Source: Clostridiales bacterium (lineage in GTDB: Bacteria; Bacillota; Clostridia; Lachnospirales; Vallitaleaceae). Taken from it: a DNA stretch of 64,000 nt. The notes below the pieces were generated by a model. That model was not told the DNA's origin and ran no database searches. It saw only the letters and a list, made by a program, of their open reading frames with translations. Below, piece after piece: positions 2-3,875 of the stretch (position 1 is its first letter; every line of letters starts with the position of its first letter). The position numbers and the translations under genes were made by a program. The stretch covers positions 3,368 to 67,367 of the forward strand of contig JAGXFY010000045.1 in assembly GCA_024636985.1 (NCBI GenBank), in the 5' to 3' direction.

Positions 2-496
2 ATTGCTATGGGTCTTGGTGTGACTTTTGTGCTTTTGGCAAGTTCGATGTCAACTTCAATTATACGTAAGTTCATACCTACCAAGGTAAGAATGGTTACC
101 TATATGGTTTTGATTTCAACCTTTGTTATCGCCTTTCAGGGATTCCTACAAGCTTATTTTTTTGAATTAAGTAAAGCCTTAGGTGCTTACACGGGACTAA
201 TTATTACTAACTGTATCGTCATGGGTAGAGCAGAAGCTTTTGCTATAAAGAACCCCATACATTTTTCGGCTTTAGATGCACTTGCCAATGGCCTGGGGTA
301 TATGTTCACATTAATTGTTATATCCGTTGTAAGAGAGGTATTAGCCTTTGGAACATTACTGGGTATACAAGTAGTAGGGGACGGGTTTGTTACCTGGACG
401 GTTATGGCGATGGCACCGGGAGCATTTTTCGTTATGGCCATTTATATGTGGATTATGAGAACAATTGCTAAGCTTAATATAGAATCAGCATCCTAA
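2..496 (+). CDS. rnfE: RnfE/NqrD-family electron transport membrane subunit (5' end outside window)
   Basis: Hydrophobic ORF open from the window edge with the family motif LIITNCIVMGRAEAFA; directly upstream of an RnfA/NqrE-type gene. Confidence 0.85.
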   Translation: MAMGLGVTFVLLASSMSTSIIRKFIPTKVRMVTYMVLISTFVIAFQGFLQAYFFELSKALGAYTGLIITNCIVMGRAEAFAIKNPIHFSALDALANGLGYMFTLIVISVVREVLAFGTLLGIQVVGDGFVTWTVMAMAPGAFFVMAIYMWIMRTIAKLNIESAS

Positions 497-535
497 AAAA
501 CATCAAAGAAAGTATCTTAGAAGGGAGTTCGGCTT

Positions 536-1117
536 ATGGAAGGATTAATTAATATTTTTATGGCATCAGTATTAACCCATAACATTGCACTGACCTATAT
601 ATTGGGTATGTGCCCCTTAATTGCTATTTCAAAGAATCTAAAAACAGCAAAAGGTATGGGCGCTTCTGTCATTCTTGTTATTACTTTGACAGCAACCATC
701 AATTGGCCCATCTATCAATTGCTTAAGAATAACAATGCCGAGAGCATCAGTTTATTAATATTTATCATTACGATAGCTGCAACGGTTCAATTCCTAGAGA
801 TTTTTTTAGACAAATACTTGCCGGCGCTTTATAATGCTTTCGGGATATTTCTTCCGCTTATTACGGTAAACTGCGCAGTGCTTGCCGTTTCTTTGTTTAT
901 GGTTAACAGAACCTTCGGTTTCTTTGAAACAGTATTTTTTGGTTTTGGTTCAGGAACAGGTTGGGCGCTTGCGATTACCATCATTGCAGCTATAAGGGAA
1001 AAGATGGCATTGGTTAGCAAAGTGCCTGACGGTTTACAAGGTGCAGGTATCGTCATGATTATTGCAGGTATAATATCTCTTGGTTTCATGGGATTTATTG
1101 GCGTCGTTGGTTTTTAG
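536..1117 (+). CDS. rnfA: RnfA/NqrE-family electron transport membrane subunit
   Basis: LGMCP and FLPLITVNCAVL motifs; 193 aa, multi-pass membrane protein. Confidence 0.87.
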   Translation: MEGLINIFMASVLTHNIALTYILGMCPLIAISKNLKTAKGMGASVILVITLTATINWPIYQLLKNNNAESISLLIFIITIAATVQFLEIFLDKYLPALYNAFGIFLPLITVNCAVLAVSLFMVNRTFGFFETVFFGFGSGTGWALAITIIAAIREKMALVSKVPDGLQGAGIVMIIAGIISLGFMGFIGVVGF

Positions 1118-1138
1118 AGATAAATAAGCATTGGTATA

Positions 1139-1261
1139 ATGGTTAAGGTGTCAAAACTATATAGTTGAACTTTCGCATACAATATATAGTTATGAATGTA
1201 TCAACGTAATTTATATATTGTATGTGAACTTAGTGAAACTTAGTTTTGACCCTATAACCAT
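1139..1261. repeat. Long imperfect inverted repeat (rod-like hairpin) between rnfA and the NqrF-like gene
   Basis: GGTTAAGGTGTCAAAACTA (1141-1159) pairs with TAGTTTTGACCCTATAACC (1241-1259); inner 17-bp stem 1172-1188 with 1212-1228. Confidence 0.75.
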
Positions 1262-1298
1262 AATTGCAATATCTTAGATCAGATTGTGAGGTATAGAT

Positions 1299-2372
1299 AT
1301 GAATGTTCCGATTATTTTAGTGGTCACACTAACCATCATAGCGATTTTGATAGCACTTTTGGATGTCCTTTTAGGTAGCAAAAGTGAGAAGAAGATAATA
1401 ATAAACGATCAAAAAACCATACCAGTAACAGGTGATAATACGTTACTAAATCATCTCTCAGCCAATAAGATATTCATTCCATCTGCATGTGGTGGTAAAG
1501 CAACATGTGGACAATGTAAAGTAAAGGTAACAGAAGGTGGCGGAGAGACCCTAGCAACTGAGACTGGATTATTAAGCCTTCAAGAACGTAAGGATCAAGT
1601 ACGATTGTCGTGTCAATGTAAGGTGAAAGGGGACATAAAAATTAGTATTCCGGAAGCCTTGCTTAATGCTCAGGAATTCAAGACGGAAGTTATGGGTATT
1701 GAGGATTTGACCCATGATATTAAGCTGGTACGTTTTAAGCTGATTCAACCAACGACCATAGACTTTAAACCGGGACAATATGCACAAATTGAGGTACCTG
1801 GTCTTGAAATACAAAGAGCCTATTCTATAGCCTCAAATCCTAAAGAAACAGATTTTCTAGAATTGATTATCAGACTGGTTCCAAAAGGTGAAGCCACAAC
1901 TTTTGTTCATAGAGCATTAGAGGTTGGTGACCGGATCAGATTACTTGGTCCTTTTGGTAGTTTCTTTCTACAAGAACATTCTGACAGGGATATTATATGT
2001 ATAGCCGGCGGATCCGGAAAAGCACCTATTCGGTCTATTCTTTACTATTTAAGGGACCATGGGATGAACCGTAAAGTCAAATACTTCTTTGGTGCTAAGA
2101 CAGCTAAGGACTTATATTATACAGAAGAGTTTCAAGAGTTGGCAAAAGAATTTCCGAATTTTCAATACATTCCGGCTTTATCTGAACCGAATGAAGAAGA
2201 CCATTGGCAGGGCGAAGTAGGTTTGATTACCGATGTGGTTGACAGACATAGTAAGAATCTTGAAGAGCATGAGGCTTATCTATGTGGTTCCCCGGGCATG
2301 ATTGATGCTTGTTTTGCTGTGTTAGAACGAAATGGTATGCCATCAGAACGTATTTATTGTGATAGATTCTAG
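1299..2372 (+). CDS. NqrF-like / aromatic-monooxygenase-reductase-like 2Fe-2S + FAD + NAD(P)H oxidoreductase with N-terminal membrane anchor
   Basis: N-terminal TM helix; CGGKATCGQC...C 2Fe-2S motif; RAYS FAD motif; AGGSGKAP and YLCGSPGM NAD-binding motifs; ends in DRF. Confidence 0.85.
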   Translation: MNVPIILVVTLTIIAILIALLDVLLGSKSEKKIIINDQKTIPVTGDNTLLNHLSANKIFIPSACGGKATCGQCKVKVTEGGGETLATETGLLSLQERKDQVRLSCQCKVKGDIKISIPEALLNAQEFKTEVMGIEDLTHDIKLVRFKLIQPTTIDFKPGQYAQIEVPGLEIQRAYSIASNPKETDFLELIIRLVPKGEATTFVHRALEVGDRIRLLGPFGSFFLQEHSDRDIICIAGGSGKAPIRSILYYLRDHGMNRKVKYFFGAKTAKDLYYTEEFQELAKEFPNFQYIPALSEPNEEDHWQGEVGLITDVVDRHSKNLEEHEAYLCGSPGMIDACFAVLERNGMPSERIYCDRF

Positions 2373-2430: not shown

Positions 2431-2613
2431 ATGGACATCAAAGTCGGGCAAGTATTGCGTCTGAAAAAAGGTCATCCTTGTGGTTCATTTGAGTGGGAAG
2501 TTCTAAGGACAGGCATTGATTTTAAGCTTAAGTGTAAGGGCTGTGGGCATCTGGTTATGATACCTAGAGTCAAGCTTGAGAAAAACATAAAAGAGATTAG
2601 AGAAACCCAATAA
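2431..2613 (+). CDS. DUF951 (YyzM-like) small protein
   Basis: LKKGHPCGSFEWEVLRTGIDFKLKCKGCGH pattern; usual position upstream of rpsF in Firmicutes. Confidence 0.85.
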   Translation: MDIKVGQVLRLKKGHPCGSFEWEVLRTGIDFKLKCKGCGHLVMIPRVKLEKNIKEIRETQ

Positions 2614-2629
2614 ACGTCAAAACTAACAG

Positions 2630-2658
2630 TTGCAAATAAGTCCTTAATATGGTATCAT
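2630..2658 (+). promoter_or_regulatory. SigA-type promoter for rpsF-ssb-rpsR
   Basis: TTGCAA (2630-2635), 17 bp, extended TGn-TATCAT (2653-2658). Confidence 0.6.
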
Positions 2659-2699
2659 GTATTCTTGTATGTGGATAGCTATGCCTATCTACAATAATA

Positions 2700-2769
2700 A
2701 AATAATATCCTTGCTCATTATAGTCATGACGACTTAGGGGTGGGCCAAAGACCAGAAGGAGGTGCCAAG
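2700..2769 (+). promoter_or_regulatory. S6:S18-type ribosomal protein leader RNA
   Basis: CCTTGCTC...GGGCCAAAGACC-AGAAGGAGG directly before rpsF, resembling the known autoregulatory rpsF leader. Confidence 0.6.
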
Positions 2770-3057
2770 ATGAATACTTATGAATTAGCATTAGTACTTA
2801 ATGGCAAATTAGAAGAAGAAGCAAAGACTGAAGCCTTTGAAAAAGTAAAAGGTTATATCGAAAAATTTGGTGGTAACGTTGTCAATGTAGACGACTGGGG
2901 TAAGCGTAAATTAGCTTATGAGATCCAAAAAATGCGTGACGGTTTTTACTACTTTATTACTTTTGAAGCAACTTCAGAAGTGCCAGCAGAAGTAGAAAAG
3001 CGTATTCGTATTATGGAATCAATTTTACGTTTCTTAATCGTTAGCAAAGTAGCATAA
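2770..3057 (+). CDS. rpsF: 30S ribosomal protein S6
   Basis: DDWGKRKLAYEIQK motif; ATG at 2770 after AGGAGG (the ORF track start at 2740 is too early). Confidence 0.97.
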   Translation: MNTYELALVLNGKLEEEAKTEAFEKVKGYIEKFGGNVVNVDDWGKRKLAYEIQKMRDGFYYFITFEATSEVPAEVEKRIRIMESILRFLIVSKVA

Positions 3058-3078
3058 AACAAAAAGGGGGTAACGACT

Positions 3079-3525
3079 ATGAACAAAGTAATTCTTATGG
3101 GGAGACTTACTAGAGATCCTGAAGTGAGATACACACAAGGTGCTGAACCTTTAGCGATTGCAAGATATTCTCTAGCGGTCAACAAACGTTTCAAAAAAGA
3201 GGGACAGCCGGACGCAGATTTTATTAACATCGTGGCATTTGGCCGCGAAGGTGAATTTGCTGAAAAGTATTTTAAAAAAGGACAAATGGTTTCCGTAGTA
3301 GGAAGACTTCAGACAGGTTCCTATACAGACAAAGACGGTGTTAAGAAATATACAACGGATGTTGTCGTAGAAGAGCAACACTTTGCAGAAAGCAAGCGTT
3401 CTTATGAAGAGCATGCAACAGCAAGTGGCGGTCAGGACGGTTCTAGCGTTAAAGCACCCACAAATAATCAATCAGAAGGATTCGTAGCAATAGATAATTT
3501 TGATGATGACGATCTACCATTCTAA
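3079..3525 (+). CDS. ssb: Single-stranded DNA-binding protein
   Basis: MNKVILMGRLTRDPEVRYT N-terminus; acidic DDDDLPF C-terminus. Confidence 0.97.
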   Translation: MNKVILMGRLTRDPEVRYTQGAEPLAIARYSLAVNKRFKKEGQPDADFINIVAFGREGEFAEKYFKKGQMVSVVGRLQTGSYTDKDGVKKYTTDVVVEEQHFAESKRSYEEHATASGGQDGSSVKAPTNNQSEGFVAIDNFDDDDLPF

Positions 3526-3555
3526 ACGATATTACTAAGCAAAGGAGGTAAGCTT

Positions 3556-3789
3556 GTGGCTTTCCAAAAAAAGAGATTTAAAAGAAAAAGACGTGTATGT
3601 GTTTTCTGTGAAGAAAAACAAAACACAATGAACTATAAAGATGTTAATAAGTTAAGAAGATTTGTATCTGAGAGAGGTAAAATACTTCCTAGAAGAATCA
3701 CAGGAAACTGTGCAAAACATCAAAGAGCTGTAACGATTGCAATCAAACAATCAAGACATGTATCCTTGATGCCTTATACTTTAGATTAA
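3556..3789 (+). CDS. rpsR: 30S ribosomal protein S18 (Zn-binding Cys form)
   Basis: CVFC...NYKDV...[23 protein letters not shown]; GTG start after AGGAGG. Confidence 0.97.
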
Positions 3790-3795
3790 TATTTT

Positions 3796-3832
3796 GGGCT
3801 TTTCATGACTTAGGTTGTGGGAGGCTCTTTTT
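3796..3832 (+). terminator. Intrinsic terminator after rpsR
   Basis: GGGCTTTTCATGAC / GTTGTGGGAGGCTC stem (G-U rich) followed by a T tract. Confidence 0.7.
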
Positions 3833-3846
3833 ATTATTAAGTAAAG

Positions 3847-3875
3847 TTGAGTTATGAACTATTAGATGATATAAT
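3847..3875 (+). promoter_or_regulatory. SigA-type promoter for gdpP-rplI-dnaB
   Basis: TTGAGT, 17 bp, TGn-TATAAT (3870-3875). Confidence 0.6.

Follow-up and report, generated by a model that had tools for sequence, protein, structure and literature searches.

A putative NQR-lineage redox pump that retains an iron-sulfur A subunit in a Petrocella-like clostridium

An operon predicted to encode an early-branching NQR-type complex

In the genome of a Petrocella-like clostridium of the family Vallitaleaceae (GenBank assembly GCA_024636985.1; 3.03 Mb, 97% complete; hereinafter G000), we identified an operon of six same-strand genes, denoted here A-B-C-D-E-F, which starts 5' of, and extends into, an analyzed 64,000-nucleotide stretch of contig JAGXFY010000045.1 (the window; contig C73 in our numbering, positions 3368-67367). 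Our favored interpretation, to which we assign a probability of about 0.6, is that this operon encodes an early-branching member of the NQR (Na+-translocating NADH:quinone oxidoreductase) lineage of the Rnf/NQR redox pumps, namely an NADH-driven, ion-exporting complex with an iron-sulfur (Fe-S) A subunit and (demethyl)menaquinone as the most probable electron acceptor. The parts of this prediction differ in strength: it is very probable that the complex belongs to the NQR lineage and possesses an Fe-S A subunit, whereas (demethyl)menaquinone as the acceptor in this particular branch is given slightly less than an even chance, and is favored on the grounds that relatives show the gene linkage and that G000 encodes a MenA.

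An earlier note on this DNA had described two membrane genes of the Rnf-Nqr type followed by a membrane-anchored 2Fe-2S/FAD/NAD reductase of 357 amino acids (aa), and the open reading frames and domains correspond to this description. The two membrane proteins are subunit D (NqrD/RnfE type; contig C73 positions 3234-3863, with the last 164 of the 209 aa encoded by window positions 2..496; PF02508, E-value 4e-39) and subunit E (NqrE/RnfA type, 193 aa; window positions 536..1117; PF02508, E-value 2e-51), and the reductase is subunit F (window positions 1299..2372), which combines a transmembrane anchor with Fer2, FAD_binding_6 and NAD_binding_1 domains. Upstream, on the same contig, lie the genes for subunit A (490-1635; 381 aa, RnfC/NqrA fold), subunit B (1640-2644; 334 aa, NQR2_RnfD_RnfE domain) and subunit C (2657-3232; 191 aa, FMN_bind domain). 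All six genes are on the forward strand, and window positions equal contig positions (locus L009, C73:1-6000) minus 3367. The intergenic gaps are 1-39 bp throughout the operon (4 bp between A and B), apart from the E-F gap of 181 bp.

The absence of RnfB after the RnfA-like gene, likewise pointed out in the earlier note, is borne out by the downstream genes, DUF951 (window positions 2431..2613, forward strand; PF06107), which we used as a synteny marker, rpsF, ssb and rpsR. No rnfB-like gene was found beside the operon, either after F or among the upstream genes, and the upstream genes do not form a standard nqrABC set. A search for a second, canonical rnf operon in G000 located a complete rnfCDGEAB operon on contig C69, which includes the sole rnfB above the cut-off in this genome (RnfB of 266 aa). 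Because the canonical Rnf is encoded on C69, the A-F operon encodes an additional complex rather than the Rnf of this organism.

An iron-sulfur RnfC/NqrA-fold subunit

The AlphaFold (AF2) model of A (pLDDT 89, pTM 0.89) adopts the RnfC/NqrA fold, with RnfC chains as the best structural matches (E-values of ~1e-21 to 1e-22), followed by Vibrio cholerae NqrA (~1e-15). The protein aligns with RnfC solely from RnfC residue 152 on, the N-terminal barrel-sandwich domain being missing, and retains both CxxCxxCxxxCP motifs (C296/299/302/306 and C336/339/342/346), that is, two [4Fe-4S] sites. The eight cysteines are invariant across 62 aligned homologs and are replaced in Segatella NqrA; two strict cluster motifs are carried by 112 of 120 A homologs. 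The GMGGATFP loop that contributes to the NADH/FMN site and is present in the RnfC of G000 is replaced by unrelated residues in A, the G.GG..FP pattern was found in none of the 120 homologs, and the corresponding region resembles that of the cofactor-free NqrA. The loss of this loop rules out the second pyridine-nucleotide site that the earlier note had considered possible at the RnfC end of the complex. The profile scores of A are below the cut-offs of both families (125 bits against the rnfC cut-off of 246 and 33 bits against the nqrA cut-off of 321; NCBIfam), and a match to Complex1_51K remains below the Pfam cut-off (27.2 vs 31.2 bits).

An insert of ~30 aa after the sequence 'ALPE' is common to the longer A homologs (417-500 aa) and NqrA and is absent from RnfC; the Petrocella form of A has lost this NqrA-type insert again. 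A is therefore an NqrA-like protein in which the clusters of Rnf were kept throughout. Besides A and the canonical RnfC, G000 contains a third, weak RnfC-like match (C3:37451-38140, 25% identity) within an open frame of 453 aa, which may be a PduS-type protein.

The flavin-binding and membrane subunits and the short reductase

Subunit B passes the rnfD cut-off, reaches 246 bits against an nqrB cut-off of 350 (NCBIfam), and has RnfD as its best solved relative (203 bits, vs 172 for NqrB). Subunit C reaches 83 bits against an nqrC cut-off of 144. The names rnfE and rnfA that had been given to D and E in the earlier note call for a correction: the whole D protein scores higher with NqrD than with RnfE (213 vs 178 bits), and E higher with nqrE than with rnfA (204 vs 178 bits), all below the respective cut-offs (245 for NqrD, against scores of 204 and, for the whole D protein, 213 bits; 248 for nqrE). 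Subunit F reaches 279.5 bits with the nqrF profile TIGR01941 (cut-off 295), compared to 212 bits with MmoC; among proteins of known structure, it is closest to NqrF of V. cholerae (190 bits), ahead of carbazole (oxygenase) reductase (139 bits).

Alignment with the NqrB-E proteins of Prevotellaceae and with RnfD/G/E/A of G000 itself shows that the cofactor ligands are in place in all these subunits. The FMN-attachment threonines are present in B (...TSATPL...) and in C (...TGATGTS...), and both cluster-ligand cysteines are present in D (contexts ...GICSALAV... and ...ITNCIVMGR...) and in E (...LGMCPLIAIS... and ...TVNCAVLAV...). Subunit F contains the C-x5-C-x2-C...C motif of the [2Fe-2S] cluster along with RAYS and GGSGKAP. 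As the earlier note had remarked, F is shorter than canonical NqrF, by 50-65 aa in comparison with the V. cholerae (408 aa) and Prevotellaceae (423-424 aa) proteins; it is short because three NqrF-specific inserts of 36, 16 and 7 aa are absent. B (in the loop that follows its first helix), D and E (two inserts) are likewise without the NQR-specific inserts. An NqrB-like N-terminal extension is present on B and is absent from RnfD and from the B subunits of the relatives that lack A.

Phylogenetic position, distribution and selection

BLAST identities by themselves do not settle where the subunits belong (D shares 44% identity with the RnfE of G000 and 40-42% with NqrD), and we therefore constructed rooted trees, taking advantage of the fact that the D-type and E-type subunits are paralogs, such that a joint tree roots each half. 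In the D and E trees, the hybrid operons cluster with canonical NQR to the exclusion of Rnf (support 100/98 and 95/99), and the NQR of Bacteroidota is monophyletic. When the tree was extended with 20 full-length representatives nearest to Segatella NqrD, drawn without taxon names from a library of 1.8 billion proteins, the clade of G000 (98/95) was placed outside the clade that holds all canonical-like sequences (95/89).

Orthologs of A have a patchy distribution: within the family, they are present in the genus and in one further genus, elsewhere in the phylum in 2 of the 400 sampled genomes, and database matches come from several other phyla. Most loci retrieved by a pattern-based search were canonical NQR of Prevotella, and only five were useful relatives. 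The concatenated tree was built from B, D, E and F (1098 columns), with C left out as too diverged from NqrC for safe alignment. In this tree, operons with an A subunit of 467-500 aa form a basal grade, and the Vallitaleaceae six-gene group, in which A has 417-422 aa and is shortest in Petrocella (381 aa), is the sister (100/99) of a five-gene group without A that includes Cellulosilyticum, Acholeplasma and Mariniplasma. Monophyly of the six-gene forms is rejected (approximately unbiased (AU) test, p 0.0017), and A was therefore lost secondarily in the five-gene group.

Among four Petrocella-clade genomes, which differ by synonymous divergence (dS) of up to 1.4, all six genes are intact, of equal length and free of indels. 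In the comparisons with dS >0.3, the ratio of nonsynonymous to synonymous substitution rates (dN/dS) falls in the range 0.15-0.23 in A and 0.005-0.08 across B-F; the values for E and F are 0.005-0.015 and 0.02-0.025. All six genes are thus under purifying selection, and A is functional but under weaker constraint than the other subunits.

The search also brought up four operons (P0185; P0195, L150:2835-11134; P0232, L151:9001-16876; P0237) in which an Fe-S A of ~495 aa is encoded together with B-C-D-E and without NqrF. These operons instead carry genes for a small Fer2 protein and for NuoE-like, NuoF-like (with Complex1_51K and NADH_4Fe-4S domains) and NuoG-N-terminal-like subunits; multihaem cytochrome genes are located nearby in two of the four.

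Linkage to quinone genes and the putative electron path

Among the seven NqrF-type operons with an Fe-S A, five are directly followed, on the 3' side, by genes for a polyprenyl synthase and a MenA-like protein of the UbiA family, and some of these operons additionally hold an ABC importer or UbiE. MenA is the best family for the operon-linked UbiA genes, and in one 4.2-Mb genome (G441, locus L112) the operon-attached gene is the only UbiA gene. This linkage suggests that NADH:menaquinone reduction preceded the loss of the clusters. In two distant genomes, genes for an SsuA/NMT1-like binding protein, an ATPase and a permease are located between the synthase and the MenA-like gene (L112:15403-17813 and L114:15046-17440); such an importer may carry a precursor of the quinone head group such as 1,4-dihydroxy-2-naphthoate (DHNA). 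In the second of these genomes (G003, locus L114), the gene order is F, synthase, three importer genes, MenA-like gene, DUF951, whereas in G000, in its closest relative G005 and in two further Petrocella-clade genomes DUF951 directly follows F, from which we conclude that five quinone-related genes were lost in this clade.

G000 retains a MenA that scores above the curated cut-off (334.5 vs 289 bits). The gene is part of a locus (C52:389-4956; L118) that also encodes a heptaprenyl-type synthase, a 129-aa FMN-binding protein, a Cache sensor kinase and a response regulator; in G005 (L134:3690-11900), this set is preceded by a gene for a 637-aa Ndh2-like flavoprotein, and an IS110-family transposase is inserted between the regulator and MenA. 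A single copy of ApbE is encoded in G000. The layout of the MenA locus in G000 and G005 recalls the flavin-based extracellular electron transfer locus of Listeria monocytogenes (ndh2, dmkA, dmkB, pplA), and the relatives attach the MenA-like and polyprenyl synthase genes directly to the NQR-like operon. The Listeria system, however, employs a different type of NADH dehydrogenase, and the connection between the MenA locus and the A-F operon is one that we infer.

If the solved structures of Rnf and NQR (PMC12174285) are taken as a guide, NADH would be oxidized at the FAD of the short NqrF-type subunit F, and the electrons would pass to the [2Fe-2S] cluster of F and then to the intramembrane cluster held by the cysteine pairs of D and E. 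From there, they would move to the covalently bound FMN of C, outside the membrane, and on to the FMN (by analogy, also riboflavin) of B. The flavins of B would deliver the electrons to the two [4Fe-4S] clusters of the cut-down A, which has no NADH/FMN site, and the most likely final acceptor would be (demethyl)menaquinone, putatively prenylated by the MenA and heptaprenyl synthase pair of G000. Na+ or H+ would be exported in the process.

Alternative acceptors and other explanations

Several observations weigh against this interpretation. In the Petrocella clade, the operon-linked MenA-like and polyprenyl synthase genes are missing, and the remaining MenA is placed in a locus of its own with Ndh2 and the FMN-binding protein. 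No menB was found in G000 (97% complete), so that the naphthoquinone head group would need to be salvaged, and no UbiA-family match was detected in the Mariniplasma genome G443, whose operon (locus L022) has no A. All six proteins score below the Nqr equivalog cut-offs (NCBIfam nqrA-F), and the named canonical NQR sequences in our trees are from Bacteroidota, the wider sample being unlabeled. Subunit A is in its most reduced form here and evolves 3-10 times faster than the other subunits; with a sister group that altogether lacks A, the acceptor may have changed in this branch. Quinone reduction at B, the site used in canonical NQR, would leave the invariance of the clusters in A unexplained, and the functions of all members of the clade are deduced from their genes. 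De novo synthesis of menaquinone was also considered for G000 and rejected: menB was not found and there is just a weak match to PF02621, a family that gives such a match in Thermotoga maritima too.

It is therefore worth considering, as a possible although on the whole unlikely alternative, that the same pump core transfers electrons in the Petrocella branch not to a quinone but to a soluble or extracytoplasmic acceptor, in which case the complex would be close in function to the A-less nqrBCDEF complexes, with electrons exiting through the A clusters or straight from B or C. This possibility is compatible with the sister relationship to the A-less group and the rejected monophyly of the six-gene forms, with the loss of the linked quinone genes and the shortest A in Petrocella, with the lack of a UbiA match in the A-less Mariniplasma genome, and with the genome papers on A-less clusters in which the acceptor is called unknown (PMC4148951, PMC5924567). 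Even more tentatively, the size series of A (~500 aa, 417 aa, 381 aa in Petrocella, none in the sister clade), taken together with the loss of the operon-linked MenA-like genes, can be read as a change of acceptor within one pump lineage, with the minimal two-cluster A passing electrons to a non-quinone acceptor; if true, the Petrocella complex would work as an NADH:X ion pump, and its chemistry would be new to the Rnf/NQR family. Against the first of these two readings stand the following points: A is intact and of constant length in the four genomes, with all eight cysteines retained and purifying selection acting on it; the NqrB-like N-terminal extension, which the A-less forms do not have, is still found on B; a bona fide MenA persists in G000; and no candidate acceptor gene is linked to the operon in this genome, where it is flanked by two tRNA genes upstream and by DUF951 and ribosomal protein genes downstream.

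Exchange of electrons between the clusters of A and ferredoxin or flavodoxin, which would turn the complex into another NAD(P)H:ferredoxin oxidoreductase of the Rnf kind, its nucleotide site being of NqrF type and replacing that of RnfC, appears improbable. Two [4Fe-4S] clusters are typical of a ferredoxin-facing module, the organism is a fermenter with ferredoxin-dependent metabolism (PMC6647913) and the A family also occurs with a NuoE/NuoF-type module, but the NADH site would be at the D/E input end and ferredoxin at the A end, so that on the path deduced from PMC12174285 forward pumping would be uphill; furthermore, G000 already possesses a complete Rnf, and the relatives are linked to MenA-like rather than to ferredoxin genes. 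Still less credence can be given to a transhydrogenase-like enzyme that couples NADH:NADP+ exchange to ion movement and binds pyridine nucleotides at either end. The RnfC-like fold and the weak Complex1_51K match of A might point to it, but the sequence contradicts it: the glycine-rich loop is missing in A and in all 120 homologs and is present in the RnfC of the same genome, and the corresponding region of A resembles that of the cofactor-free NqrA. Least plausible of all, to the point of being negligible, is that the operon is decaying and functionless: A does evolve faster, a repeat has been inserted between E and F and neighboring genes have been lost, but the six frames stay intact across the four genomes at low dN/dS (0.005-0.23), with all cofactor ligands kept.

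Relationship to known complexes

The predicted NADH-driven pump of the NQR lineage shares with Na+-NQR (V. cholerae, PDB 7xk3 and 8a1t; the menaquinone-reducing Segatella bryantii) the order of the six genes, the NqrF-type input, the lack of RnfB, the cysteine pairs of D and E, the FMN threonines of B and C, the loop-less A and the grouping in the D/E trees. It differs in that NqrA is cofactor-free whereas A keeps two [4Fe-4S] sites. The N-terminal barrel-sandwich domain is missing from A, as is the NqrA-type insert from the Petrocella form; in addition, B-F are without the NQR-specific inserts, and B, C and F are shorter, with B and C close to the length of RnfD and RnfG. Conversely, the features in common with Rnf (Clostridium tetanomorphum, 7zc6; Acetobacterium woodii, 9eri) are the RnfC fold, both [4Fe-4S] motifs, the compact membrane subunits and a B that passes the rnfD cut-off and has RnfD as its best solved match, but RnfB is missing from the operon, its RnfC-like subunit is devoid of an NADH/FMN site, an NqrF-type subunit is encoded, and D and E branch with NQR rather than with Rnf.

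NqrA-less nqrBCDEF clusters have been reported in Thermotoga thermarum and Pseudothermotoga lettingae (PMC4148951), Clostridium ultunense (PMC5924567) and 'Ca. Izimaplasma' ZiA1 (PMC6256511). The short F of the A-less forms is of the same kind (~65-67% identity in Cellulosilyticum, Acholeplasma and Mariniplasma), as are their compact B-E subunits; they differ from the operon analyzed here, which keeps an Fe-S A under purifying selection, in having no A gene and no N-terminal extension on B.

According to reviews (PMC4014512, PMC12174285), NQR derives from a duplicated rnf operon through the loss of RnfB, the gain of an oxygenase-type reductase and the loss of the RnfC cofactors; no living Rnf-NQR intermediate is named in them. 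In the account of Reyes-Prieto et al. (2014; PMC4014512), Firmicutes are without nqr. In the 2025 review (PMC12174285), NqrA is presented as a protein free of cofactors, and an intermediate is not mentioned. The clade described here has the predicted set of intermediate characters, in that NqrF has been gained, RnfB and the NADH/FMN loop are gone, and the longer A subunits have acquired the NqrA-type insert, with the Fe-S clusters still there and the NQR-specific inserts not yet present. This mixture of Rnf-like and NQR-like characters agrees with the proposal of an intermediate-type complex made in the earlier note. The order of the steps in the Rnf-to-NQR transition thus becomes testable, and a mechanistic question is raised regarding the role of two [4Fe-4S] clusters at the output end of an NQR-type pump; Petrocella, which is cultured, is a tractable organism with the smallest A.

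In the literature on Nqr/RnfC-like clusters, we found no description of an Fe-S NqrA, and the genome notes cover A-less clusters only; Meheust et al. (PMC8238504) counted any NqrF-bearing cluster as NQR. The 'NQR/RNF-like' system of the same authors is a distinct, two-subunit system. We consider the following to be new: the reduced A of 381 aa, the series of shrinking A subunits that ends in the A-less clade, and the linkage of MenA-like genes, which were gained and later lost.

Genomic surroundings and the repeat between E and F

Upstream of A, the operon is preceded by genes for tRNA-Cys and tRNA-Met, followed by an AT-rich gap. No Rfam match to a riboswitch or another known RNA was obtained in the leader of the operon or in the E-F gap. 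The latter contains a palindromic repeat of ~122 bp (window positions 1139..1262), resembling miniature inverted-repeat transposable elements (MITE) or repetitive extragenic palindromes (REP), which has 69 matches in G000 (both strands counted) at 80-98% identity, with other copies including C6:13492-13624, C13:2208-2339 and C28:60682-60822. The palindrome is imperfect and folds as a long hairpin (-58 kcal/mol, z -7.75). When the gap was inspected for an intrinsic terminator, no T-run was seen after the hairpin, and promoter-like matches in the gap are no commoner than in shuffled sequences.

The inserted repeat means that the E-F junction is not tight in G000. It is missing in the closest genome, G005 (complete), where the gap is 51 bp; the gap is likewise widened, to 181-194 bp, in two further Petrocella-clade genomes (loci L019 and L020) and is ~10-30 bp in most other relatives. 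Separate transcription of F is unlikely given the short gaps in the closest genome and in most other relatives, and, because F is under very strong purifying selection in the four genomes, the insertion of the repeat has not disabled this gene.

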